Part shown: in pieces, positions 11,363 through 59,081 of the stretch
Layout: each line of letters starts with the position of its first letter
How positions within the stretch are numbered: the first letter of the stretch is position 1
IMG/VR virus record: IMGVR_UViG_3300023180_006024
Direction: 5' to 3' (one strand)
From: a virus
DNA: 64,000 nt
Position numbers and translations under genes: made by a program
The notes under the pieces: generated by a model
Told to the model about the DNA's origin: nothing
Seen by the model: only the letters and a program-made list of their open reading frames with translations
The model's database searches: none

Positions 11363-14300
11363 CTATTTATCTATCAACTTCTTGACCATTTCTTTAAGTT
11401 GATCTATTTCTTCCTGTTGTTCTTTTATAGCTTCGATTAAAAGAGGAACCATCTTTTCATACTTAACTGTTAAGTAATCCTCTCCTGATTTACTTCCAAT
11501 GTCGTCACCAGTCTGTTCATCACGTAGTCTATCAAACGGTGCATAATCAACTGCTTGTGGTAATACTTTTTGAACTTGTTGTGCAAGTACACCTGCATCG
11601 TTGACTTTTATAGTTGGATTAAATCCTAGTTCTTCTACTTCATCAATCCAATCATAATGCACACCTTGTAGTTGCTTAACTTTATCAATTGCATTTTCAA
11701 TAGGACGAATATTTGTTTTCAATCTTTCATCTGATGAATATGCTGTTACTTCGCCTGTTGCTGTAAACGATGCCGAAACATCAACAGTAGTATTGTTACA
11801 AGTTAGTCGAGTACCACCATTGTAATACAATCTAAAGTAACTGTTTCTTACAGCTAAGAAGTGTGCCTCGTTATCAACATCGTTATATAGATATGTGCTT
11901 GAGCTACCATCGTGCATTAACACAATGCGTCCGTCAATGCTAAGACCTTCCCAGCCGTTTACGCCGGAACCACTTGTTTGTATAGTACCATACTGTCCTG
12001 TAACATCGGTAATACCTCTAGTGCTGTCAACCCTAATAATACCGTCTGCACGTAAGTTACCTGGTGTGTATATACCGTTTGTAAACTCACTAGCATTATT
12101 CATACGCAACCAACCGTCATCAAAATCTGCACTCAATGCTGTTCTACTGTTAAACGCAATACCTCTATTATCGCTTGTGCTATTACCAGTAAAATCAATG
12201 ATATCGTCGCTTGTGCTTGAATAATCATAAGTTCCGCTTGCAGTATCATTTGCATCACTGCGTATAAACGACCCACTATCAATACCATCTATAGTGTCAG
12301 CATCAAGTCCTGAACCTGATCCATCGTTGCCAGAGTGCCAAACAGTATGTGCTGTTGCAGTGCCATTGTCATAAAACTTAAGACCATTAATACCGCTGCC
12401 AATATCAAGTCTTTCGCCTGTAGCATCTGATGCTAATCTTAATGTGCCGCCGTTTACATATTGCATGTAAGCACGTCTTGTTGTACCTTGATACCATCCA
12501 ATATAAGGAGAGTTGTTTGTTGTAGGAGCAACAATCTTAAATACTTCTCCGTCTCTTTGGAAAGTTATCTGTCCAGTTGCAGTGTCATTTGCATCACTAC
12601 GTAAGAAACTAGCACCTTGAATACCATCAACAGTATCAGCATCAACGCTTGTAAGTCCACTACCATTACCAGTAAATGTGTTTGTACCAATATTAACATC
12701 GCCAAAGTTGCTGGTAATACTACCTGCATCTAATGCACCTGTACCAGTAATGCCTGTGTAACTTCCACTTATTCTTGCGTTAGGCACTGTACCTGATCCA
12801 AGATTATCTGCATTAAGAGATGTAATACCACTACCACTACCTGTTATACTTCCAGTAACACTTAGGTTATTAGAAACGGTAGTTGTAGTATTGTTTACTT
12901 CTAGTCTCTCTACACCTGCTGTAACAACACGCCATTGATCGGTTGCATGGAACTGAATATAGTTGTTGCTATCACCTGTGTGGTAGATTCTATCAGCAAG
13001 TGCAATATCTTCAACACCTGTAATCACATTGCCATTCAAGTTTGTAGCACCAAGACTTACACTACCGGTTGCAGTCAAGTTACTTGTACCTATATCAATA
13101 TTTCCAAATCCGCTTGTTATAGACCCGCTTCCAAGTGCACCAGTTCCTGTAATACTTGATTGGTGTTGTGTAATACTGGTAGCAGCAATTCTGCCATCTG
13201 GTACAGTACCGCTTGTAAGTTGGCTTGCATTAAGTGCAGTCAAGTTTGTACCAACACCACTAAAGCCTGTTGTGCCACTAAATGTAAATGTTGTGGTATT
13301 TACGCTCAAGTTTACACCAGGTACACTAAACAAATCGTTGCTTGCATTACCAATAATAATAGCATTACTTGTAGTATTTGCTGCTGTTTCAACGTTATAA
13401 CCAATAAGAACGTTATTACTACCAGTTGTTAATGTATCGCCTGTGAATGCACCAATAGCAACGTTATTATCTCCAGTTACAAGTTCAAGTGCTTCAATAC
13501 CAACACTAGTGTTATAATCACCAGCAGTACTGTTTGATTGCGAACTTTTACCTATTGCTGTGTTACCTGCACCTGCATTAGTTCTTTGCTCCATTGCATT
13601 TGCACCAACTGCTGTGTTGTTGCTCACAGTTGTTACAGCGTTTAATGCATTGTAGCCTAGTGCAGTATTTCTGTCACCTGTTAGTCCTCCTGCAAATGTA
13701 GCATCACCAATACCTGTGTTAAACTGTGCACCCGTACCAATGCTGCCGCCTTCACCAAACACCAAGTTTGTTGCTTCGCCTTGATTGCCTCTACCAATCC
13801 TATGACCATTTACAGTAATATCGCTTGTAAATGTTTTACCTGCTTGACTAGTTGGCAATCTAGCATCGTTTACAGTTCCACTTGACAAGTTAGTTGCATT
13901 AAGTGCTGTAATATTTGCACCATTACCGTAGAATCCTGATCCTGTGTAAATCTTTTTAGCAACACCTAAACCGCCGCCAACACGCACAGCACCACTAGTA
14001 CTATTGCTTGCATCACTAGTATCACTAAATGTTTTTACACCTGCCATTGTTTGGTTACCGCCTAGGCGTGTACCTTGTACAGTACCTGATGTTAGCTGAC
14101 TTGCATTTAAATCTGTAAGTCCGCTGCCATTACCAGTAAATGTGCTTGTACCGATGTTGATGTTTCCAAAACCAGTTGTGATACTACCGCTATTAAGTGC
14201 ACCAGTACCTGTAATACTTGCTTGGTGTTGAGTTACGTTACTAACAGCAATACGAGCATCAGCTAGTGTACCACTATCAATATTAGATGCTGCAATGCTA

Positions 14301-17300
14301 CCTGTAAAGCTGGCACCATGTACTGCACCACCTACACCTAGTCCGCCTGTTATGACAAGCGCACCTGTGCTTGTACTAGTAGCACTAGTGTTATTTGTAA
14401 CGGTTGTTAATCCACTTGCTGTAAGAGTTGTAAATGCACCAGTTGAAGGTGTTGTTCCTCCGATTGGAACATTGTCGATAGCAGGTATAGTTAATGTTCC
14501 TGAAATACCAACATTGCCTGCGACACTTATATCATCTGCAAAACTAACAGTGCTTGTTGCGGCGCCAACATTGATTGTAGCTGCGCCTCCTCCAAAGTTT
14601 ACTGTTGTAGCATTTGTGTTTAGTAAGTTAAATGATGTTTGGTTTGTTGTAATATCGCCACCGTCAACATTTAAATCGCCATCAACATCAAGATCGTTGT
14701 TAACACTTGTAGTACCTGTTGCAGCACCAATGTCAACTGCTGTAGCTGCACCAAATGCATTCACTGTAGTTGCATTTGTATTCAACAAGTTAAATGTTGT
14801 TTGGTTTGTTGTGATATCGCCACCGTCGACATTTAAATCAAGATCAACATCTAAGTTATTGTTAATACTTGTAGTGCCAGTTGATGCACCGATGTCTATA
14901 GCAGTTGCACTACCACCAAAGTTGATTGTAGTAGCTGTGTCATCAAACAATGCCATTGTGGTGCTTGCTGCCTCAATGCCAGTTGTAAACTCAGGAGATG
15001 TAGCAAAAACTGCTGCACCTGTTCCTGTTTCGTCACTTAACACGCTTGCAAGTTGCGCACTAGTTGTTGCAGCGAACTGATTCAATCCTGTTTCAGTTCT
15101 TGCTAATGTACCGCTTGTTGGAAGTGTTACACTTGTATTACCTGTTGTTGTAAGTCCAAGAGTGTGAGCACCAGTGTGTGTAAAGCTACCTCCTAGTGTG
15201 ATAGTTTTACTACCATTGTTTACACCTGTACCACCGTAAGTTGGATTAATGACTGTAGCTTGCCATGTACCTGTGTTAACAGTACCTAGTTGTTGTAAAC
15301 TACTATTTACAACATTAGTACCAAGTGTTGTTGACGTTAAAACATTATTGCCATTTATACGATATGCTTTTGCACTTGCAAGTTCAAAGTTTTCACTGCT
15401 TGTCCAACTATCAGTAGCATCTACCCAGTTAATAGTTTTATCAGTTGTTCCTTTTAAGGTAATACCACCACCGTCTGCTGTAACATCAGTTGGTGTTGCA
15501 ACATTGCCAAGTTCGATATTTTTATCTTCAACAATAAGTGTTGCACTATCAACTGTGGTTGTTGTACCATTAACTGTAAGATTTCCTGTTATTTCAACGT
15601 CACCTGCAATGTTTGTATTACCTGTAGTATACGCCATTGTTACTTTATTCAAGCCGTCGCCAAAGTTAAAGTTACCATCTTGATCAACTTGCATACGTCG
15701 AGTACCGGCTGTGTAGAAGTCTAAGTCGTCATTGTCAGTACCTGATGTTGTTTCGGCCACAATGTAAGTATCTTGGTCAACGTCGATTACACCGCCTAAA
15801 CCACTCCAGTTTGTTCCATCATATCCTTCAAATTGTCCGTCTGTTGAGTTGTAACGAACTTGACCTTGTGCTGCTGTAGGTCTTTCAGCAGTTGTACCAA
15901 CTGGAAGTTTTACAGCACTTGTATCACTAAAGTTTGTGTATCCAGTTACTGTAACATCGCCTTCGGTATCAATGGTCATTCTTGTTGTTGATGTTTGTAA
16001 TGTTTCTCCACTAGTACCTGTTTGACCAGTTTTGATTATAACACTACCTCCAGTTGCATTACCTGTGCTTAATCCGCCTTGTATAGTGATATCGCCGCCG
16101 GCAATGTTTGTTCCTAGACCGTTTTCGCCTCTAATAACTGCACTCGAAGTACTTGCACTAGCTTCTGCACTACCAAAGATAACATCTCTATTTCTAATAA
16201 CCATTGTATTATCTTTAGAAATAGTACCTTGCACTACTACATTGGCAGCAGTCACATTTGCAGCAGTTCTAACTGTAAATGATGTTGCATCAATAGTTGC
16301 GCCACTTACTGGCCATGTACCATCTAAGTTTGTGACATTACTTCCAGAAATAATAATAGAATCGCCTGCACGGACACCAAGTGTTTCAGGTGTATAAGTA
16401 AATGTTATTTCTGTTGATGTTAATACAGTACCTGTGGTTTCTGCACTCAAAAATACTTCAGTTTCGGTTACACCAGTAACAGTTGTGTTAGCAGGAATAC
16501 TTCCGCTTCCTGTTACTGTCATACCATATTTTACACCAGTAGTGTCTGTAAATACCAAAGTTTTTTCAGCATTAGCAGTTGCTTCACTAGTATCTAAAGC
16601 AATACTTGCTAGGTTTACAACAACGTCTTGAGATGCTGTTGCTTCATAATCTAGAGCAAAACTTGTAATATCTCTCGTGTCGCTAGACTTACCTATTTTT
16701 ACATTGTGTGCATCGCCTCCAAGTTCTAAAGTCGTAACATTAGTATTATAAACTTGACCTAGAGCATCGCTTGAAGAGCTAAGTTTAGCTGAACCAACGT
16801 CTAGTCCTTCAGCAAGGTCAAGTGCTGTACCCCACTCAGGTGTACTACCGTTTGACTTTAAGAAAGTATTTGCACGACCGATGTTCAAAGTATTTAATGT
16901 ACCTGACGATTGTGCATAAAGTATATCACCTTGTGCATAGGTTGTTATAGCTGTGCCACCTCTATCAACAGGAACTGCACTTGTTAAGTTAGCAGGGTTT
17001 AAGAAGTATGCACTATCAAGTCCGTCAAGTGTACCAGCATCAACAATACCATCTTTAATGAATACTTCACCACTACCGTTTGAGTTAACATCAAACTGTG
17101 TTTGCAAGAAACGACTTACACCTAGTGTACTAAATGTACCTCCAGCATCATAGTCGGCATTTGCAATACCAATATTTACTGGATCACCATAATACTCACC
17201 TGCTGTGTTTAAACCAGTAAGAGTAATAGGGTTATCTGTTGTATTAGCTTTTTTCAAGGTTTGAACAACAACCTTGTATTCACTGTTACCAAACAATGCT

Positions 17301-20300
17301 GTCTCAGTATTAGCAACCCCACTTGCACCAAGTCTACTTGGAGATATTGTTCCAGAAATAATATTTTCTGCGTCAATGTTTGTAACAGCAAGAGTGTTCC
17401 AGTTTGCAATCAATCTACTTGAGGTGTTAACAATAGCATTTACTTGAACATTATTTCTAATAACTCTTGCACTACCTACACCATTAGTGCCAATATCTCT
17501 AGCGTTTGTAACTAGTCCATTGATACTGCTTAGTGCGTCTGAACGTAGAGCATGAATAGTAAATGAGTTAAGTGTGACACTTCCTACAAAGAATCTTGCA
17601 CCACTTGCAATCTCTGTGCCATTCACAGTTGGCAATGCGTTGCTAGTTGAACCATCTTCCAGTGATACAAGTCTTATAGCATCACCTGTTGTAAATCCAT
17701 GACCTACTACGACAACACTGTTATCAGTTAAGTTTACAGTGTATCTAGTAAAGTTGTGGTTGTTGTTAGCAGGTGTACTTAAGAAAGTTATCTGAGTATT
17801 TAAACTAAAGTCGTCATATACCTCAAAGGTGTCATCATCAACAACTTTAATATAATAAACATTACCGTTTAACAATCCGCCGATTGCAACATTTCCTAAT
17901 GTATCATATGTTACTGGATCGCCATTTGAAAATCCGTGAGCTGTGACACTTACTCTACTATCTGTATAGTTTACTGCACCGCCGCCGCCTGTTGTACCAG
18001 CTAGGAAGTTATGACTAATAGTGTCATCAAAGTTAATATCATTAGAATTTTGCACTGCTGTATTATCTTCAACAAAGTCAATACTCGATGCACTAGCAAC
18101 AAATAGTTCGCCTCCTAAGATGTCTACATACGCTCTATCTTCAATAGCAGATATTTCAATCTGGAATCCACTTCCTGTGCCGCCAATGTCACTAGCATTT
18201 GCACCTAACAAATCACCTGCCACATATCCTGTACCACCTCTTGTTAAGTCAACATCGGTAACAGCACCAGCCTGCACTGTGATGTTGGCTTTTGCACCTG
18301 TACCAGATCCAGTAACGCTTGTCATACTTACATTTTCGTATATTACCGATCCAGTTGTAGGAGTGTACAAGCTACCAGTTGTAATGTTAGCGTTATCTAC
18401 ACTTGCTGCAATACCTTCACGTAACTCTGTAACAGCACCTTGGGCGTTACCATCAGCACTTGTTACAATAGTATTTGCAGTACCAGTTACTGATTTTGAA
18501 GCTTCGTCGTCGCCTGTGTTTGCAATAGTAAATGTTGTTGTAGTAGGAACACTTAAAACCAAACCGTTTTGGTTATAGGTAGAATCGCCATCAACTGCAA
18601 CTTTTACGTTGTTGTCCACATTAATATTATGTGCTCCGCTAGTTGTTATAGTCGCAATATTTCCACTTCTACTTACATCTGTAATAGTTGCAATAGTAAA
18701 TGTATAAGTATCGTCGCTATCAAGTATTAAATACTGGCTACTGTTACTGCTACGTAAGAAGTAGTTATCAATAATTTCACTACTTACACCTTTTGAAGTA
18801 ATATTTACTCCGCTGTCTACGCCATTTACATAGATATTTCCAGCACTTACTTCCCAAGGATCGCCAGTGCTATCATCTGTTTTATCCCATGCTTCTCCGA
18901 TTGTAGCAACAAGAATATTAGTACTGAGAGAAAAATCACCTTTAGCATAAGCAGTTGCACCAGTTACTCCTGGTTGTGTAATAGTATCGCCGTCGCTTGC
19001 TGTAATAGTTCCAGATAAGTTAAGTTCTACCTGTTCGTATTCTTCAGTACCAATGTCACCAGCTTTCAAGTCAACTGCCGGAATATCTTCAATTTGTTCT
19101 AATCTAGATCGATATCCTTTGGTATTTGTGTTTGTAAACTGTCTAGTAGCAGGAATCAAGTCTGCGTTAAGCTGACCGTTAACATTGAGCTGTACAATAG
19201 CACCCGGAACAGCAGCAGAACTAACTGTCTTGTCAATAAAACCACCTAGTCTGTTTGACAAGAAGCTTCTAACAGCAAGCTGAGTACTCAAACGATTGTT
19301 GCTTGCGCCGCCTATTTCGTCATCACCTAAGTTAACATCAGTTGATATTTCTTCAATAGCAACATCACTAACACTAAGTTTCAAAGCGTCAAGTTCATCA
19401 ACCTGCACTTTGTTTCTAAAGGTAATGTTACCAGTTCTGTTGAACGCTGTAATAAAGTCACCAACTTTAAAGTCACCAAGTTCGTTTGTACCCGATGAGT
19501 AGCAACGTCCTGGCAGTTCTTCAAACTGTTCGTATTCTTCTCTTGTATTACCGCCGTTTTGTGGTAGAGCGTTGTAGTCTGTACCCGAACCTGCATATTC
19601 CCAAGTGTGTGCAGAACTGTTAACAATACTAGGTCTGTGGAACCAAAGTTGCTTCTCTGGAAGGTTGATAGTGTTTGTAACACTACTACTTCCGTCTGTA
19701 GCAGTGATGCTAAATGTTGCTGTACTCAAACCACGTTTAGTGGAAACTTCGTTTACACCAATATTTGTGTTAGGTGTGCCACTATGGTCTTCTGTAATAG
19801 TGCTAGTTGCATCAAACTGAATACGTAATGTGCTTGAGCCGACTGTAACTTCTTCAATACTTACAACAAGTAAGCGATCTGCAGGAATCCAACTTGCTAC
19901 AATAGCACTGTTATTGTTAGCACCTGTTGAACCTGTGATTGCTCTTCCTGGCACAAAGTTATAACTTTCTGCACCAGATTCTAGTTCAAGAGTTTGGTAT
20001 GTTGTATGACTTGACAATACTTCTTCAACAAAAAACTCAATAATATTACTTTTGAATATATGGTTTCCTGTGTTACTAAAGTTACTAAAGATTGTTACTT
20101 CAAACTCGCCACCGTCGTCATATGCAAGTGTAAATTCATCTTCGTTAATAATATTCACATAGTAAGTTTGTTCATCATCTAAACCACCAATAATAGTATT
20201 GCCATTGGCACTATAAACAACTTTTTGTAGATTTGTAAATCCGTGTCCTACTATTGTAAATATACCTGTAGCAACATCTAAAGCTGTTGCTGCATCAAAT

Positions 20301-23182
20301 GATGTTTCTGTAGGTGTTGGAATATAGTCATTTGTTATGTCACCTTCACTACTTACATCAAATGGATCTGGAAGTGTATCTGGATCTCTAATAATATCTG
20401 TAACAATATTAAATCTACTTTGAACAAAATCCTCAACTTCTGTAGTAATCTGTCCATATCCTGAGATTTCTGTGTTTGCAAGTGTAGCAGCTTGTTGAAT
20501 AGCTTTGATTGTTTGCAGTTCTTGTCCTGAAATTTGACTTCTAGAACTGTCTGCAATGTTTGCAGTAAAGTAACTCAAACCTGCGTTTCTAGAATATCTG
20601 TTTCCTGTATCCCACGTATCTTTAGCAACTGCATTTACAATCAGTTTTGTATCTCTCAAACATTTTGATTGATCATATGTAAAGTTGTACCACAATCCAG
20701 CATCGATTTGTTCATTAATGTATTGTGTAACTCTTTGAGCAATGTTAGTTGCACCTTCTGTTCCTAATGCATTGTTAGAATCGGCAACAAGTGTTTGGTT
20801 CGGCCATGTTGTGTCTGGTTCGCTTCTAACGATTTCGCCACCGTCGTTGTCAAGGTGATCAACTACAATTTGTACAAGTGCTTGGGCTTGTGTGCTTGCT
20901 GCTGCACTACCTGCGGCTGCACTTGTATCCTGTGTTTCCACATTTCCACTTGAAACTGTAACAGTGTTTTCTAAAATAACATCACCAATAACATCTTTGA
21001 GTCTGCCGTATGCAGCGATTGTTTCTTCTTTTTCACCTGATCCATATTGTGCGGATGTTCCGACAAAGTATTGGAAAGCTGCATCTCTAGTAAGCAAGTT
21101 ACCACCGTATGTCAAGTCATAAACAAGTGCATCAATAATAAGTGCAGTGTCTCTTTCGCACTTTGTTGCGTTATAAGTAAAATCTGTTGCAAACGGAGGT
21201 GTTCCTGCTGCAACTTGATCGGCAATCCATGCTGTAACTTCTTTCTTGATAAATGTTTTGTTGTTTAATAGCTGTGTAACTGCATTTGCATAGCCACTGT
21301 CACTAGCATTTCCAGTTCCGCCTGTTGGAGTTGGATAGCTGTATGTGTCTGCAATCTCTCCAGGAACATCGTTACTACTACCATTGGTAATAATATCAAT
21401 AACTTCATCCCAAAGGGCATTTGCTCTGGTAACTGCTGTTGCATCATTTAATGCTGCTGCGGTATATGCTTTTGCTTGTGTAAATGCTTCTACAGTTTGA
21501 TCTCTTTGATCATTAATAACAGTGTCGCTTGTTCCGTTATAATATTTAATAGCACTACTAATAGTTCTGTAGTTACTGTTAAACATAATATCGTAACGTA
21601 TAGCATCTAACAAGAATCTTACATCTCTTCTACACTTTTCTTCATTGTATGTAAATCCAGCCCAAATATTTGCAGTAGCTGATGAAATCTGTGCATTAAT
21701 CCATGTGACAGTGTCATTAGCAATCTGGTCTTCTTTACTTTTAAGAACATCATATGCTTCTTTATATCCTGGTTCTCTGTATCTAAGAACAAATTCTTCA
21801 ACTGGTGCTGTTCTGTTTAGCCCCACCATTGTGATAGTTTGTTTGCCTTCACTTTGACCAGTTTGAGTAACAAACGCACGGTCAAACTCGAACGCTTTTG
21901 GAGAATAACCAGATGAACGCAGAGCATACAAACCAAAGTTAGTAGCAGAGTTGGTAATAGAACAATAACCACCAGATTGTGTGTAAACACCGTTTAGTAG
22001 GAAGATTTGGAAACAGCTAACGATCTGTGCATAAGCATCGTTAAGTAGACGCCAACCTGTACCACCAAATGAAAGCATGGTGTATGCGTTAGCAACCATT
22101 GATTTACCTTGTTCAGGTACAGCGCCAATGGCAGGGTTTTCAGCTTCAATAGCAAACTGAGGAACGTTAGGAGAGTTTACAAGTGCACCATCAATCTTTG
22201 CACCACTACCTCCTAAAAACGAAATAATAGAACAGTTCTGTGTATACGGTGAAGTTACAATGCTTGGTTTTGTATTAGGTAAGTTTGTATATTCCGCACG
22301 GTCTGTTATATCTGTTGCATCAGGGTCATCAAACGTTGTTGCATAATCCCATGTAATCAATGGAACAAAGTTATCGTCAACGCCATCTCTAAATGTAAAT
22401 TCACCAAAGTAACATGCGTTACGAACACGTAGCATGTCCAAGTTAGCATTTGCAGGACGAATAATACATCCACGCAAACCGTCACCTTTGATAACAACGT
22501 TATCTGGAACAATAACTGGGTTGTCTTCTGTGTAGTCACCAACCGCAACTTTTATGTTAACACGTTTGTTGGTTAAAGTTCCATCAGGATTGTAAACTAA
22601 AGCACTTGCAAGTTTACATGCACGTTTAAGAGTTTTAACTGGTGCTGTCTGACCATCATTTTCATCGTCACCTTTGTCTGCACTAACATAGATAACATTT
22701 CCGCCAAACAAGTCTGAATCAACAAATTCTAGTTGTCCTGTAGCATCTGTACGTAGCAACTGACCTTTTGTACCTGCTGTAAGAGGCAAAGTTAGATTAT
22801 AACTAGCAGGAAGTGTATCAGGTGCTTTAATTTTTACTCCATCTTCACCAGATGCAGTAAGTTCTCTAAATGTAATAGCAGTTGCATTTTCCATGTCAAG
22901 GGCTTCTTTGATGTTCAAACCCTCGTTGGTTATTGTCATCTTTTCAGAATCATTAACTGTAAATGAAATCTCTGCTGATGCACTATCTCCTGCATCATCT
23001 ACTTTTACTTCAGTATTGTTTTCAAATATTCTTTTGGTAATATCTTGAACTGTATTATCATCACGCAGTAGGAACACTTTACCGTCTGCTGTGTTAATAG
23101 CTAGTTCGCCTGATTCTAGTTGAGATACTAGCGGTTGCTTACCCGCGACCGCACTTCGCTTGTGTCTAATCTTTGTTGCCAT
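11363..23182 (-). CDS. Giant tail fibre (3939 aa) with C-terminal peptidase S74 intramolecular chaperone
   Basis: N-terminal KRSAVAGKQP...GELAINTADGKVF fibre motif, a beta-helix-like domain, Gly/Thr-rich repeats, and C-terminal SDERLKTNI...IDKVKQLQG...GVLAQQV...VKYEKMVPLLIEAIKE. Confidence 0.85.
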   Translation of the reverse strand: MATKIRHKRSAVAGKQPLVSQLESGELAINTADGKVFLLRDDNTVQDITKRIFENNTEVKVDDAGDSASAEISFTVNDSEKMTITNEGLNIKEALDMENATAITFRELTASGEDGVKIKAPDTLPASYNLTLPLTAGTKGQLLRTDATGQLEFVDSDLFGGNVIYVSADKGDDENDGQTAPVKTLKRACKLASALVYNPDGTLTNKRVNIKVAVGDYTEDNPVIVPDNVVIKGDGLRGCIIRPANANLDMLRVRNACYFGEFTFRDGVDDNFVPLITWDYATTFDDPDATDITDRAEYTNLPNTKPSIVTSPYTQNCSIISFLGGSGAKIDGALVNSPNVPQFAIEAENPAIGAVPEQGKSMVANAYTMLSFGGTGWRLLNDAYAQIVSCFQIFLLNGVYTQSGGYCSITNSATNFGLYALRSSGYSPKAFEFDRAFVTQTGQSEGKQTITMVGLNRTAPVEEFVLRYREPGYKEAYDVLKSKEDQIANDTVTWINAQISSATANIWAGFTYNEEKCRRDVRFLLDAIRYDIMFNSNYRTISSAIKYYNGTSDTVINDQRDQTVEAFTQAKAYTAAALNDATAVTRANALWDEVIDIITNGSSNDVPGEIADTYSYPTPTGGTGNASDSGYANAVTQLLNNKTFIKKEVTAWIADQVAAGTPPFATDFTYNATKCERDTALIIDALVYDLTYGGNLLTRDAAFQYFVGTSAQYGSGEKEETIAAYGRLKDVIGDVILENTVTVSSGNVETQDTSAAAGSAAASTQAQALVQIVVDHLDNDGGEIVRSEPDTTWPNQTLVADSNNALGTEGATNIAQRVTQYINEQIDAGLWYNFTYDQSKCLRDTKLIVNAVAKDTWDTGNRYSRNAGLSYFTANIADSSRSQISGQELQTIKAIQQAATLANTEISGYGQITTEVEDFVQSRFNIVTDIIRDPDTLPDPFDVSSEGDITNDYIPTPTETSFDAATALDVATGIFTIVGHGFTNLQKVVYSANGNTIIGGLDDEQTYYVNIINEDEFTLAYDDGGEFEVTIFSNFSNTGNHIFKSNIIEFFVEEVLSSHTTYQTLELESGAESYNFVPGRAITGSTGANNNSAIVASWIPADRLLVVSIEEVTVGSSTLRIQFDATSTITEDHSGTPNTNIGVNEVSTKRGLSTATFSITATDGSSSVTNTINLPEKQLWFHRPSIVNSSAHTWEYAGSGTDYNALPQNGGNTREEYEQFEELPGRCYSSGTNELGDFKVGDFITAFNRTGNITFRNKVQVDELDALKLSVSDVAIEEISTDVNLGDDEIGGASNNRLSTQLAVRSFLSNRLGGFIDKTVSSAAVPGAIVQLNVNGQLNADLIPATRQFTNTNTKGYRSRLEQIEDIPAVDLKAGDIGTEEYEQVELNLSGTITASDGDTITQPGVTGATAYAKGDFSLSTNILVATIGEAWDKTDDSTGDPWEVSAGNIYVNGVDSGVNITSKGVSSEIIDNYFLRSSNSSQYLILDSDDTYTFTIATITDVSRSGNIATITTSGAHNINVDNNVKVAVDGDSTYNQNGLVLSVPTTTTFTIANTGDDEASKSVTGTANTIVTSADGNAQGAVTELREGIAASVDNANITTGSLYTPTTGSVIYENVSMTSVTGSGTGAKANITVQAGAVTDVDLTRGGTGYVAGDLLGANASDIGGTGSGFQIEISAIEDRAYVDILGGELFVASASSIDFVEDNTAVQNSNDINFDDTISHNFLAGTTGGGGAVNYTDSRVSVTAHGFSNGDPVTYDTLGNVAIGGLLNGNVYYIKVVDDDTFEVYDDFSLNTQITFLSTPANNNHNFTRYTVNLTDNSVVVVGHGFTTGDAIRLVSLEDGSTSNALPTVNGTEIASGARFFVGSVTLNSFTIHALRSDALSSINGLVTNARDIGTNGVGSARVIRNNVQVNAIVNTSSRLIANWNTLAVTNIDAENIISGTISPSRLGASGVANTETALFGNSEYKVVVQTLKKANTTDNPITLTGLNTAGEYYGDPVNIGIANADYDAGGTFSTLGVSRFLQTQFDVNSNGSGEVFIKDGIVDAGTLDGLDSAYFLNPANLTSAVPVDRGGTAITTYAQGDILYAQSSGTLNTLNIGRANTFLKSNGSTPEWGTALDLAEGLDVGSAKLSSSSDALGQVYNTNVTTLELGGDAHNVKIGKSSDTRDITSFALDYEATASQDVVVNLASIALDTSEATANAEKTLVFTDTTGVKYGMTVTGSGSIPANTTVTGVTETEVFLSAETTGTVLTSTEITFTYTPETLGVRAGDSIIISGSNVTNLDGTWPVSGATIDATSFTVRTAANVTAANVVVQGTISKDNTMVIRNRDVIFGSAEASASTSSAVIRGENGLGTNIAGGDITIQGGLSTGNATGGSVIIKTGQTGTSGETLQTSTTRMTIDTEGDVTVTGYTNFSDTSAVKLPVGTTAERPTAAQGQVRYNSTDGQFEGYDGTNWSGLGGVIDVDQDTYIVAETTSGTDNDDLDFYTAGTRRMQVDQDGNFNFGDGLNKVTMAYTTGNTNIAGDVEITGNLTVNGTTTTVDSATLIVEDKNIELGNVATPTDVTADGGGITLKGTTDKTINWVDATDSWTSSENFELASAKAYRINGNNVLTSTTLGTNVVNSSLQQLGTVNTGTWQATVINPTYGGTGVNNGSKTITLGGSFTHTGAHTLGLTTTGNTSVTLPTSGTLARTETGLNQFAATTSAQLASVLSDETGTGAAVFATSPEFTTGIEAASTTMALFDDTATTINFGGSATAIDIGASTGTTSINNNLDVDLDLNVDGGDITTNQTTFNLLNTNATTVNAFGAATAVDIGAATGTTSVNNDLDVDGDLNVDGGDITTNQTSFNLLNTNATTVNFGGGAATINVGAATSTVSFADDISVAGNVGISGTLTIPAIDNVPIGGTTPSTGAFTTLTASGLTTVTNNTSATSTSTGALVITGGLGVGGAVHGASFTGSIAASNIDSGTLADARIAVSNVTQHQASITGTGALNSGSITTGFGNINIGTSTFTGNGSGLTDLNASQLTSGTVQGTRLGGNQTMAGVKTFSDTSDASNSTSGAVRVGGGLGVAKKIYTGSGFYGNGANITALNATNLSSGTVNDARLPTSQAGKTFTSDITVNGHRIGRGNQGEATNLVFGEGGSIGTGAQFNTGIGDATFAGGLTGDRNTALGYNALNAVTTVSNNTAVGANAMEQRTNAGAGNTAIGKSSQSNSTAGDYNTSVGIEALELVTGDNNVAIGAFTGDTLTTGSNNVLIGYNVETAANTTSNAIIIGNASNDLFSVPGVNLSVNTTTFTFSGTTGFSGVGTNLTALNASQLTSGTVPDGRIAATSITQHQSSITGTGALGSGSITSGFGNIDIGTSNLTATGSVSLGATNLNGNVITGVEDIALADRIYHTGDSNNYIQFHATDQWRVVTAGVERLEVNNTTTTVSNNLSVTGSITGSGSGITSLNADNLGSGTVPNARISGSYTGITGTGALDAGSITSNFGDVNIGTNTFTGNGSGLTSVDADTVDGIQGASFLRSDANDTATGQITFQRDGEVFKIVAPTTNNSPYIGWYQGTTRRAYMQYVNGGTLRLASDATGERLDIGSGINGLKFYDNGTATAHTVWHSGNDGSGSGLDADTIDGIDSGSFIRSDANDTASGTYDYSSTSDDIIDFTGNSTSDNRGIAFNSRTALSADFDDGWLRMNNASEFTNGIYTPGNLRADGIIRVDSTRGITDVTGQYGTIQTSGSGVNGWEGLSIDGRIVLMHDGSSSTYLYNDVDNEAHFLAVRNSYFRLYYNGGTRLTCNNTTVDVSASFTATGEVTAYSSDERLKTNIRPIENAIDKVKQLQGVHYDWIDEVEELGFNPTIKVNDAGVLAQQVQKVLPQAVDYAPFDRLRDEQTGDDIGSKSGEDYLTVKYEKMVPLLIEAIKEQQEEIDQLKEMVKKLIDK
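14560..14900 (-). repeat. 162-nt (54-aa) tandem repeat inside the fibre gene
   Basis: Near-identical GGTTTGTTGT.ATATCGCCACCGTC.ACATTTAAATC at 14641 and 14803 (LNVDGGDITTNQTxFNLLNTNATTVN). Confidence 0.85.
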
Positions 23183-34338: not shown

Positions 34339-34459
34339 GTTTTCTCCTTATGTTGACGTTCTAGGTCTACGGGGTTGGGTCCCCATAAGTCCTCATCGTG
34401 AGGCTCTCCTCTTGACATAAGTATTTATCTTTTTCGTAAAAATGGGTTATAATGTCCGT

Positions 34460-34490
34460 AAAAAAAGGCCTACCGTAGTAGACCTTTTTT
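34460..34490. terminator. Rho-independent terminator (bidirectional)
   Basis: AAAAAAGGCCTAC-cgta-GTAGACCTTTTTT. Confidence 0.8.
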
Positions 34491-34712
34491 AATAGTGATA
34501 GGTAGGACTAAGGATTACCTACAAGTGCCGTGACATATCCTGTCTACATAACTAGCACAACCTCACAATAGAATGGTTAGTTCTACTTTCTCTGCAACGC
34601 CTTGTCTCCAAAGTCTTACAGCGCCACCACAGCGTGTGAGTCAAGTTAATGCCTATGTGAAGCATCGTTTCCTTGCACTATCTAACTCGGACCGTCGTCT
34701 TTGTTATGTACT
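34460..34712 (-). ncRNA. Candidate ~250-nt structured non-coding RNA
   Basis: No tracked ORF. Bounded by a TTGACC-N17-TATATT promoter and a terminator, with several internal stems. Confidence 0.5.
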
Positions 34713-34713
34713 T

Positions 34714-34742
34714 AATATAGCAAAAGAATAAGCTAAGGTCAA
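34714..34742 (-). promoter_or_regulatory. Sigma70-like promoter
   Basis: TTGACC-ttagcttattcttttgc(17)-TATATT on the minus strand. Confidence 0.7.
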
Positions 34743-34810: not shown

Positions 34811-35983
34811 TTAGCTGAAGCTTAGGTTTGCAGAAGTAACTTCTACTTTTTCTAGGTAGTCAGCTGCGTTACCAAGTGAAGACGCTGTGTTTGAAAGCTC
34901 AACATAACCGTAACGAGTCATGAAGCTCACGACTGGTTCGAATGTTGTTGGATCAAGTACAACACCGCTTGACATCAATGGGATGTATGGGCAGTAGAAT
35001 GCTGCTGCGTCTGATTCAGATGAACCTTTGTAACCTACAAGTACATCATCGTCGTCTGCATATGTGTTAACATAAATGCGCATTGCGTTGTTTAGTGTAC
35101 CAACCATTTTTGTGTTTGTTGGTGCTTCAAATGAACCTTCAGTAGTACGTGCAAACGCTGATGTTGTTGCTGATTGTAGTACTGTTAAGATTGCTGGTGA
35201 TACAACAGCCCAGTTACCTGCGCCTCTACGTGTACGTTGTGCGATACGGTTTGCTGCACGGTTAACTAGAACCGCTAATGCTGCATGTTCGTCACCAACG
35301 AATGTAGCTGTACCAGATACACCTGCTTGGTTGTATGTGTCTGTACCTGTACCTGCAAGTGTTGCTAGGCTACGTAGTACTTCTTGGTCGATTTCAGCAG
35401 TAATCTCTTGTGCAAGTGCTGCCATGATTTCTGCTTCTACGTCGATACCGTGTTGTGACTGAGCGTCTTGAGCTGACTCAAATGTCCAACGTGCTGATAG
35501 CTTACGTGATTTAGCTTCAACAGTTTGCTTCAAGATTTGGATGCTTAGTCTATTACCAGCTGTACCTTCTTTTGTTGCAGTTGCGTCTGCTTTACCATTT
35601 GCATTACCTGAATAACCTTCAGCAATTTTAAATGGTGAAAGTGCTTCTTCACCTGCTGTTGTTGATCCACCTGCTGTACCTGTGAACGCATCTGCATAGC
35701 GTACACGCAATGTGTGAATCTGGCCAACTGGACCAGTCATTGGTTGAACACCAACGATTTCGTTCGCGATCACTGTTGGCATAACACGTCTGATTACTGG
35801 TAGAATCACACGGTTTAATGTTGCTACGTTACCTGCAGAAGTTGCACCCGCTGTTGCTGTCTCCATCAAATGCTTACGAGTATTTTCAAGAGTTGTTTCC
35901 ATAACAGCTTTTTTGTTGCCTGAAAGGCCTTCGACTAGGGCACCTTTGGTCTCCTGCCAGCGACTTTCTAATAGTTCTGACAT
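34811..35983 (-). CDS. gp23: Major capsid protein (T4 gp23-like)
   Basis: LPVIRRVMP..IANEIVGVQPMTGPVGQIHTLR; VEAKSRKLSARWTFE.AQD; EITAEIDQE; FYCPYIPL; TRYG. Confidence 0.97.
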   Translation of the reverse strand: MSELLESRWQETKGALVEGLSGNKKAVMETTLENTRKHLMETATAGATSAGNVATLNRVILPVIRRVMPTVIANEIVGVQPMTGPVGQIHTLRVRYADAFTGTAGGSTTAGEEALSPFKIAEGYSGNANGKADATATKEGTAGNRLSIQILKQTVEAKSRKLSARWTFESAQDAQSQHGIDVEAEIMAALAQEITAEIDQEVLRSLATLAGTGTDTYNQAGVSGTATFVGDEHAALAVLVNRAANRIAQRTRRGAGNWAVVSPAILTVLQSATTSAFARTTEGSFEAPTNTKMVGTLNNAMRIYVNTYADDDDVLVGYKGSSESDAAAFYCPYIPLMSSGVVLDPTTFEPVVSFMTRYGYVELSNTASSLGNAADYLEKVEVTSANLSFS

Positions 35984-39778: not shown

Positions 39779-39785
39779 AATGTAT

Positions 39786-41504
39786 TTATGCTGTAGGTTC
39801 TACTTCAGCACCTCCTCCTACTACTGATGCATTATCTCCAGCCGATACATCATCATCGCCTGTGATTTCATCGCCTTGTGTATTTTCTGCATCTGCACTA
39901 ATATCGCTGCCTGTAATGCCTGCATCTCTGAGTTGACTTGCTGCATCTTCGCCTGGAACTTGTAGTAGTTCGTCATTTTCTTCACGCCATAACTTTTCGT
40001 TTTCGGCAATCTCTTCTTTACTTAAACCTAAGAAACGTTGTAATGCAAATCTGTTTGAAATAAAAGGAATCTGCTGCATTTGAGCAAAAGTTGATATTCT
40101 ATTGTTGTCAAGTTCTGCTTGACGGTAACTGGCAAAGTTTTGTGGAGGTTGTAATGTTAAGTCAAACATTGACACATCAATGTTTACACCTTTTTTACTT
40201 AGATATAGTTTAAACTCTCTGTTAAACACTTCAGTGATTAAACTTTGCAAACGTTCACAATAGTTGTTGAATCGTAGTTCTTGAATGTATGCTGTGCCTA
40301 CACGCCCGTCATTATACTGACTTGCACTGTCGTCTGCGCCTGTTGGCAAGTAACTCGAAGGAATACGCAAACCACGTAGCAGTTTGTTTGTAAAATATTT
40401 CAAGTCATCAATTTCACCTAGGTTAGTACCACCTGGCAGTGTTTCAACTTTTGATCCACGACCTTCGGCAGTCTGTGGAAAGAAGTAGTCTTCGTTGATT
40501 GACAGCGGATTATAGCTTGAGTCTACGACTGTTTGACCTCCGCCTGTCTTGGATGGGATGCGTCTTTGGTGTATTTCCGTTTTAACACGCTCCACAAACT
40601 GCATAGCAAGGTGTGAAGGCATGTTGCCCACATCAACGTAGAATACTCTGCGCTCTGGCGCACGTTGGACACGATAGATAATAATCGCATCTTCAAGCAG
40701 TTCTTTCTGCTTGTACACTTTAAAAATACTTTCAAGTAAGCTGTTACCAAAAGGAAAGTTTTGATCAAGACCTTCACTCATTGACAAGTGAACAATATGA
40801 TCAGCATCAACTGCTGTTTCATTTGACTCTGTGCTCCAACGACTTGTACCTGCATCAGGTGTTTTGCCTGTCATGTACTTTTGATCTAGTGTTTGATAAC
40901 CTGGTTGGTTACCTCCTGGGCCATAAGCATTTTGTGTGTTGATCTTGGTTGCACTCAACCCTTCATAAGCAATATTTAAATCTTTAATGATAAACTGTTC
41001 AGGACGTTTACCTTCACTTTCGTTTACAATAACTTTTGTAACATTAGCAGGATCTACATGAAACCATTTCTGTGTTTCAGGATCTCTAATAAAAAACTGG
41101 TCACCATACTTGAATGTGTTTCTTACAATTTTAAAAATACGCTGCTCAAACTCTTGTATTTTGCACCATTGTTTCAAATATTGTCCAATGATTTGTACTT
41201 CTGAGTTAGTTGGAGATGCATTAAACTTCAACTTAAATGGTGTTTGATTTTCTTTATTTTTTTGCGAACAAAACTCTGCAAGTATATCAAGAGCAGCATT
41301 TACTTCTGAATCGTTGTCCATTGTGTTGTACTGACCATAACGCTCAATACGGTTAGGTGAACCAACATACACATCGGGTAAGTGACTGCTATAGTTTGCT
41401 GCTGCTGGACCAATACCTGTTCCACGATTAAAGGAAAATGGAGAATAACTTCCACTAGTGTTCATGCTAGTAGGAACAGGTGTAAAATGTTTTTTCCAAC
41501 TCAT
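39786..41504 (-). CDS. gp20: Portal vertex protein (gp20-like)
   Basis: LLEDAIIIYRVQRAPERRVFYVDVGNMP; EDYFFP; VETLPGG.NLGEIDD; LRIPSS. Confidence 0.97.
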   Translation of the reverse strand: MSWKKHFTPVPTSMNTSGSYSPFSFNRGTGIGPAAANYSSHLPDVYVGSPNRIERYGQYNTMDNDSEVNAALDILAEFCSQKNKENQTPFKLKFNASPTNSEVQIIGQYLKQWCKIQEFEQRIFKIVRNTFKYGDQFFIRDPETQKWFHVDPANVTKVIVNESEGKRPEQFIIKDLNIAYEGLSATKINTQNAYGPGGNQPGYQTLDQKYMTGKTPDAGTSRWSTESNETAVDADHIVHLSMSEGLDQNFPFGNSLLESIFKVYKQKELLEDAIIIYRVQRAPERRVFYVDVGNMPSHLAMQFVERVKTEIHQRRIPSKTGGGQTVVDSSYNPLSINEDYFFPQTAEGRGSKVETLPGGTNLGEIDDLKYFTNKLLRGLRIPSSYLPTGADDSASQYNDGRVGTAYIQELRFNNYCERLQSLITEVFNREFKLYLSKKGVNIDVSMFDLTLQPPQNFASYRQAELDNNRISTFAQMQQIPFISNRFALQRFLGLSKEEIAENEKLWREENDELLQVPGEDAASQLRDAGITGSDISADAENTQGDEITGDDDVSAGDNASVVGGGAEVEPTA

Positions 41505-50947: not shown

Positions 50948-50964
50948 ATGTGCTCCTAAGATTG

Positions 50965-51005
50965 TATTTATAATAAACTACGTACTTAAAAAAGTCAACT
51001 AAATA
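50965..51005. promoter_or_regulatory. Divergent promoter region (sigma70-like and late)
   Basis: Minus strand: TTGACT-N17-TATTAT (50970-50998) overlapping TATAAATA (50965-50972). Plus strand: TAAATA at 51000-51005. Confidence 0.7.
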
Positions 51006-59066: not shown

Positions 59067-59081
59067 GAAAATAAATACGTT

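Follow-up and report, generated by a model that had tools for sequence, protein, structure and literature searches.

ROOL and GOLLD are large non-coding RNAs of phages and prophages that often lie by tRNA genes and that form RNA-only cages. Another family of structured RNAs, the manA motif, was put forward as a candidate riboswitch to which no ligand has been assigned (Weinberg et al. 2010, Genome Biol 11:R31, PMC2864571). In the supplement to the same study (Additional file 1), the GOLLD alignment carries tRNA annotation and the asd RNA is treated as an independent RNA and not as a leader, given that its terminator is conserved, that it has no antiterminator and that the next gene has a separate promoter. 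manA RNAs that were refolded in vitro have since been reported from cryo-EM to form pentamers, decamers and a 60-subunit icosahedral cage (Ren et al., bioRxiv 10.64898/2026.07.01.735769). According to that preprint, the subunits of manA_A0F1 are joined by two kissing-loop contacts (L5–L7′ and L8–L9′) and those of manA_pho34 by a GNRA-receptor contact (L6–P6′) together with L5–L7′ and L3–L8′. Both RNAs are deposited (PDB 24QD and 23NR). The assembly was reported for five manA RNAs other than the one described here, at high RNA and Mg2+ concentrations and by in vitro refolding only, and the preprint calls manA a putative cis-regulatory element, without giving it a function or describing its genomic layout (bioRxiv 10.64898/2026.07.01.735769).

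Here, we describe a manA-family RNA in the 64,000 nucleotides of the IMG/VR virus record IMGVR_UViG_3300023180_006024 (hereafter, the window; coordinates are positions of the window, and its features are on the minus strand unless stated otherwise). Comparing the locus with those of related phages, we suggest, with a probability of about 80%, that the stretch at 34460–34742 is a free-standing gene for this RNA that has its own conserved promoter and terminator.

Genomic setting and family of the RNA

All genes that flank the RNA unit in the window are on the minus strand. Upstream lies the gene for a Gp23-type major capsid protein (34811–35983; PF07068, E = 4e-100; phrog_138), itself preceded by genes for a gp21-type prohead protease and a scaffold-like protein, and downstream are genes of 121, 342, 110 and 3099 aa. 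The best matches of the capsid protein (tblastn) are giant phages, that is, Vibrio phage 2.275.O (72%; 349 kb), Sinorhizobium phage Phosso (67–71%) and the Pseudomonas PA5oct and Cronobacter GAP32 groups (66–67%). Judged by this capsid similarity, the source is a giant Rak2/PA5oct-like phage and not a cyanomyovirus; it is an uncultured giant marine phage, and its clade is one of uncultured giant T4-like phages. A search of 50,697 cultured phage genomes by DNA similarity returned no match to the 600-nt region. Vibrio phage 2.275.O, the closest cultured phage by capsid, has no manA in its 349 kb, and its post-capsid stretch is just 120 nt. Elsewhere in the window, ARAGORN reports a 94-nt tRNA-Cys with anticodon ACA (19619–19712, minus strand) within a 3939-aa ORF (11363–23182); as Rfam finds no tRNA there at its gathering threshold, this is probably a false positive.

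An Rfam search of the 64-kb window (cmscan) identifies 34701–34492 (minus strand) as manA (RF01745; 55.4 bits versus a gathering threshold of 55.2, E = 2.1e-11), a borderline score that lies 0.2 bits over the threshold. The match spans the full model (positions 1–192 of 192) and is the sole above-threshold Rfam match in the window, in which the motif is present as a single copy. The unit is a member of the catalogued manA family and no new RNA class. Weak Rfam matches near the terminators (L20 leader, STnc RNAs and Phe leader) fall far under their thresholds and were set aside, as they reflect terminator hairpins only.

The minimum-free-energy (MFE) fold of the single sequence matches the manA architecture, and the core of nine helices (34492–34701) is supported by cmscan, by this fold and by covariation. 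Helix P1 (34699–34690), with the loop GACG, is followed by the closing helix P2 (34682–34678 paired with 34501–34497), which encloses P3 to P9. Loop L5 (UGUGGUG, 34625–34631) contains UGGU (34629–34626), which is complementary to ACCA in its partner, loop L7 (ACUAACCAU, 34573–34581). P6 is tipped by loop L6, a GNRA tetraloop (GAGA, 34605–34608), and is about 17 nt longer than the Rfam consensus, with compensatory changes in its inner helix. AGGAU in loop L8 (34537–34541) is complementary to AUCCU in loop L9 (34511–34515). The RNA has the conserved manA loops (L5 GUGGUG, L6 GNRA, L7 UAACCA and L9 GGUAAUC..AGUCC), which are kept in relatives.

A preliminary description of the locus had not recognised the family, although it had named Rfam cmscan as a check. 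Four of the five stems that it listed are nonetheless helices of the Rfam manA model: GATAG/CTATC is the closing helix, and TAGAA/TTCTA, GTGC..GACA/TGTC..GCAC and GTAGG/CCTAC make up P7, P8 and P9. The fifth, a long-range stem of CTTCACATAG with CTATTGTGAGG, was assigned the wrong partner and is rejected here: UGUGA pairs with the second UCACA (34639–34635), a pairing that covaries as UAGUA/UACUA in relatives, and loop L3 varies independently.

The signals that bound the RNA had been placed correctly, both in order and in position. Behind the intrinsic terminator of the gp23-type capsid gene (34792–34765, from a terminator scan), which forms the upstream boundary of the cassette and which, as an A-tract/stem/U-tract structure, could work bidirectionally, comes a sigma-70-type promoter (TTGACC-17-TATATT with a TG-extended −10, 34742–34714; 10/12 matches). 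This is the sole zero-mismatch match in the window to the clade pattern GGTTGAC-N15-TGnTATA. About 210 nt of ORF-poor sequence then lead to the second strong terminator that had been proposed (34491–34460), which folding resolves into a 13-bp hairpin (34490–34461) that runs into a U run and is made up of an A tract, GGUCUAC, the loop UACG, GUAGGCC and U7; the scanner did not list it because the A and U tracts were absorbed into the stem. In the MFE fold of the whole unit (−74.7 kcal/mol; z = −2.7, that is, better than shuffles), the manA motif and the terminator lie side by side, the terminator as a separate hairpin. Host sigma-70 RNA polymerase would be expected to initiate near A34707 and to stop at the U tract near 34462, such that the product would be a discrete RNA of about 245 nt and not the leader of the next gene. 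The start site near A34707 and termination at 34460–34491, including its efficiency, are predictions from sequence, and the sigma-70-type promoter alone suggests early expression of the unit.

The cassette and its neighbours in related phages

Using the capsid protein as the query, we collected 80 IMG/VR loci (79–94% identity) and searched these with a covariance model. It was trained on the window RNA together with nine homologues, and its structure was projected from Rfam. The model finds the RNA in 28 of the 80 loci, with every copy downstream of gp23 and on the same strand. In the alignment of these relatives, which was fitted to the manA model and is hence biased in its favour, 87.9% of cells are paired versus 35–43% in slid controls, and compensatory changes are found at 48 of the 54 base pairs; RNAalifold on a plain MAFFT alignment also recovers most helices. 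Close relatives score 30–54 bits against Rfam manA, most of them under the threshold, and a second group, located at the same site, scores 56–80 bits, so that these RNAs grade into canonical manA. One 17-mer that does not vary in the RNA is present in at least 116 contigs of IMG/VR and in no fewer than 119 JGI metagenome contigs; the latter contigs, as listed, are all of at least 1 kb, and none of them has the short length of the predicted transcript.

The RNA is accompanied by its flanking signals across these phages. In every copy of the first set of relatives, the pattern GGTTGAC-N15-TGnTATAnT ends approximately 7 nt ahead of the motif. Of 57 distinct copies, the promoter is found in 55, and 48 are followed within 60 nt by an intrinsic terminator; the remaining 9 copies, which lack a terminator, count against the stand-alone reading. 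A hairpin of −12 to −24 kcal/mol with a U run follows the RNA in 21 of 24 copies, and the same gp23 terminator stands ahead of the cassette in relatives in which the RNA comes directly after gp23. The cassette is present at 26 of the 62 capsid loci with enough sequence (IMG/VR), and in the other 36 the next gene, with its late promoter and freshwater-2 leader, comes directly after the gp23 terminator. The distance from gp23 to the cassette ranges from 111 to about 1000 nt, with other inserts between, and 7 of 52 copies are not located behind any capsid gene. Taken from these placements, the cassette is optional and movable and sits in a variable post-capsid gap.

This gap, by its contents, is a hot spot for small inserts. 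In some relatives, a 206–237-aa ORF and a 64–67-aa ORF lie between gp23 and the cassette (L002, 3732–4624; L008, 2203–3119; L009, 3737–4551; L013, 3732–4624; coordinates are those of the individual loci), with no Pfam match for the pair in L002; other relatives have a lone inserted ORF of 64–70 aa, and the copy in L014 has a weak cold-shock-domain match (E = 0.0045). In several relatives, glutamine-riboswitch aptamers (RF01739; 43–58 bits, threshold 35) are found between gp23 and the manA cassette (L025, 3734–3781; L005, 3736–3782; L075, 3733–3780; L047, 3954–4003; L055, 2734–2783; L035, 3972–4021), and in three relatives the aptamer overlaps the start of a 63–77-aa ORF that has no Pfam match. 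Glutamine riboswitches are a class typical of cyanobacteria and their phages, and the aptamers may hint at the hosts of these relatives. On the other side of the RNA, a tRNA-Gly(UCC) begins 5–6 nt past the manA-type RNA in L061 (3990–4063) and L022 (3999–4073). In L061, the terminator sits behind the tRNA, so that the RNA and the tRNA would share one transcript in the layout of a stable-RNA operon, from which RNase P would trim the 3′ side of the RNA.

The next gene in the window has signals of its own. A T4-late-promoter-like sequence, ATAAATAC (34421–34428, minus strand), lies outside the RNA unit, serves this gene and marks the downstream boundary of the cassette. The sequence occurs four times in the window (34421–34428, 39782–39789 and 50964–50971, all on the minus strand, and 59071–59078 on the plus strand), in all four cases directly upstream of an ORF start and in the matching orientation, which is in keeping with late promoters of the T4 type (TATAAATA-like) in the source phage; in relatives, GATAAATAC is kept after the RNA terminator. 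A freshwater-2-type 5′ leader (RF02980; 34335–34405, minus strand; 47.3 bits versus a gathering threshold of 49.9) is likewise a neighbour outside the RNA unit and belongs to the 121-aa gene (34337–33972, minus strand); RF02980 is found in more than 25 relatives (42–77 bits), with or without the manA cassette. To our knowledge, the freshwater-2 motif is known from metagenomes only, with no assigned organism. The motif extends from just past the conserved GATAAATAC to the start region AAGGAGAAAAC-AAUG, and in giant T4-like phages it would accordingly seem to lead the late transcript of a small, conserved gene of the structural region. The gene behind this leader in L061 (4149–4841) encodes 230 aa, the C-terminal part of which matches the ubiquitin-activating-enzyme E1 FCCH domain (PF16190, E = 1.6e-16); the 121-aa homologue in the window has no Pfam match.

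Leader, coding gene, monomer or multimer

A cis-acting riboswitch or attenuator would have manA sense a ligand and gate read-through of the terminator (34491–34460) into the 121-aa gene and those that follow. In favour of this, manA is placed among cis-regulatory riboswitch candidates by both Rfam and Weinberg et al. 2010 (PMC2864571), the motif of Prochlorococcus phage P-SSM2 sits directly ahead of a purL-like ORF, and attenuators classically have this order of elements, with a promoter ahead of a structured RNA, a terminator and then a gene. However, the terminator starts past the end of the motif, its sequence varies freely among relatives, and the RNA holds no matching complement to it: we found no conserved antiterminator among the copies compared, as the longest duplex between the 5′ arm of the terminator and the 3′ half of the RNA averages 5.5 nt in a copy's own pair versus 5.7 nt in cross pairs. 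The MFE fold accommodates both motif and terminator; the next gene keeps its late-type promoter and leader in the 36 relatives without the cassette; a tRNA and no ORF comes after the RNA in L061 and L022; and the downstream genes are of late structural type, for which early read-through would have no obvious purpose. The lack of an antiterminator, the separate promoter and leader of the next gene, the downstream tRNA and the lack of a conserved ORF argue together against a leader role, and we consider a riboswitch at this locus improbable. A small-protein gene, for which there is a 37-aa sense ORF (34665–34552) or a 52-aa antisense ORF (34573–34731) in the window, can be given almost no weight: neither ORF is preceded by a ribosome-binding site, the ATG of the sense ORF lies within helix P3 and is replaced in relatives by CUG, UUG, GUG or others, and substitutions track base-pairing rather than codons. 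Across 24 homologues, no ORF on either strand is conserved, the longest measuring 14–60 aa with differing start positions. The preliminary description, which had seen no tracked ORF and had read the stretch as a stand-alone small RNA insulated in a late structural block, agrees with this picture on both counts, in that the only ORFs inside are short and not conserved, and in that a conserved promoter/RNA/terminator cassette is followed by a gene with its own late promoter.

Returning to the free-standing gene that we favour, the loops of its RNA bear on how the product may work. We inferred the correspondence between the loop names of the preprint and the Rfam helices by counting hairpins, which places L6 on the GNRA loop, in agreement with the preprint. 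For L5 and L7, UGGU/ACCA alternates with UAGU/ACUA among relatives, with 96.8% of cells paired. The complement of the L9 5-mer is found in the same copy's L8 in 34 of 54 distinct copies, versus 2.6% for mismatched copy pairs, and at least five complementary combinations of L8 and L9 occur (AGGAU/AUCCU, CUGAU/AUCAG, AUGAU/AUCAU, GAGAG/UUCUC and CAGAA/UUCUG); the second group at the same locus has complementarity of L3 and L8 (UACCA/UGGUA) instead. On these substitution patterns, the complementarity of L5/L7 and of L8/L9 is maintained by compensatory evolution, in which pairing within a molecule and pairing between molecules look alike. The RNA may act as a multimer through L5/L7 and L8/L9 kissing loops and the GNRA L6, given the covariation of both loop pairs and the match of all three elements to intermolecular contacts in the preprint; we rate this reading at slightly under even odds.

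The RNA might otherwise work as a monomer, either as a decoy or sponge for a host or phage protein or as a base-pairing regulator, with the loop pairs forming intramolecular pseudoknots. All of the evidence for a stand-alone RNA fits this equally, covariation is blind to the difference between intramolecular and intermolecular pairing, and a possible pseudoknot is drawn in the manA motif as depicted by Weinberg et al. 2010 (PMC2864571). We nevertheless regard a monomer as unlikely, given that L5–L7′ and L8–L9′ were seen between subunits in every manA tested (cryo-EM maps, bioRxiv 10.64898/2026.07.01.735769) and that the variable neighbourhood of the cassette points to no target or partner protein. 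Extending the multimer reading, manA of giant phages can be envisioned as a self-contained mobile ‘RNA particle gene’ that would be expressed at a high level from its consensus-like promoter and would form pentamer-based shells in the cell with a role of their own. Such shells would assemble through the covarying L5/L7 and L8/L9 loops and might, for example, sequester or scaffold a host or phage component. This extension is tentative, and we would sooner doubt than expect it; if true, the family would have stood under the wrong heading, that of riboswitch candidates, for 15 years.

Comparison with catalogued manA and other non-coding RNAs

The window RNA and manA as catalogued in Rfam (RF01745) have in common the nine-helix layout, the conserved loops and a habitat of marine metagenomes and T4-like phages. 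The window copy differs in its threshold-level score, in its extended P6 (by about 17 nt) and in its origin from a giant Rak2/PA5oct-like phage. Whereas the Rfam entry has manA as a 5′ leader that regulates metabolic genes in cis, the window RNA has its own terminator, and the gene that comes next is a separately promoted structural gene. The missing cis-regulatory context lowers the claim of cis-regulation and leaves the family membership as it is, since the difference is one of context and not of fold.

The manA of Prochlorococcus phage P-SSM2 (NC_006883, 142837–143034; 181.6 bits) belongs to the same family, has a similar promoter (TTGACA-17-TATAAT) that ends about 7 nt ahead of the motif and, by our own reading of its sequence, has complementary L5/L7 (UGGU/ACCA) and L8/L9 (CUGUA/UACAG) loops. 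Unlike the window copy behind the capsid gene, it belongs to an early or metabolic part of the genome and has no terminator, and just 15 nt separate the end of its motif from the start codon of the purL-like ORF, which is followed by hsp20. As this copy abuts an ORF without an intervening terminator, the stand-alone layout marks a true contextual difference among members of the family, and the P-SSM2 layout makes a leader-type role elsewhere in the family at least possible. With respect to the RNAs that were refolded in vitro, A0F1-type loop pairs (L5/L7 and L8/L9), as judged from the loop description in the preprint, are present in the window RNA and in its close relatives, and the second group at the same site has L3/L8 complementarity, like manA_pho34.

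manA has been an orphan: catalogued among riboswitch candidates since 2010, it has had no ligand, and its in vitro assembly into RNA-only cages, as reported in the preprint, has come without a biological context. The locus described here and those of its relatives provide a natural setting in which manA is clearly its own gene, with a private promoter and terminator and sometimes with a tRNA in the same predicted transcript. Compensatory changes preserve the complementarity of the loops that are reported to join the subunits of the cage, which argues that these contacts are selected in nature, and related phages with and without the cassette offer a tractable experimental comparison.

Among other non-coding RNAs, ROOL and GOLLD resemble the window RNA in being non-coding RNAs of phages and, if the analogy with refolded manA RNAs applies to the window RNA, in forming RNA-only multimers. 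They are several times larger and have no sequence or model similarity to it (neither has an Rfam match in the window), and the window RNA is not a member of either family. For the asd RNA, the argument for a stand-alone RNA is the same as that made here, although its structure is unrelated and it is found in Lactobacillales and not in phages. To the published record of these RNAs, our analysis adds a stand-alone manA cassette in giant phages that are not cyanophage-like, together with the covariation of its loop contacts.
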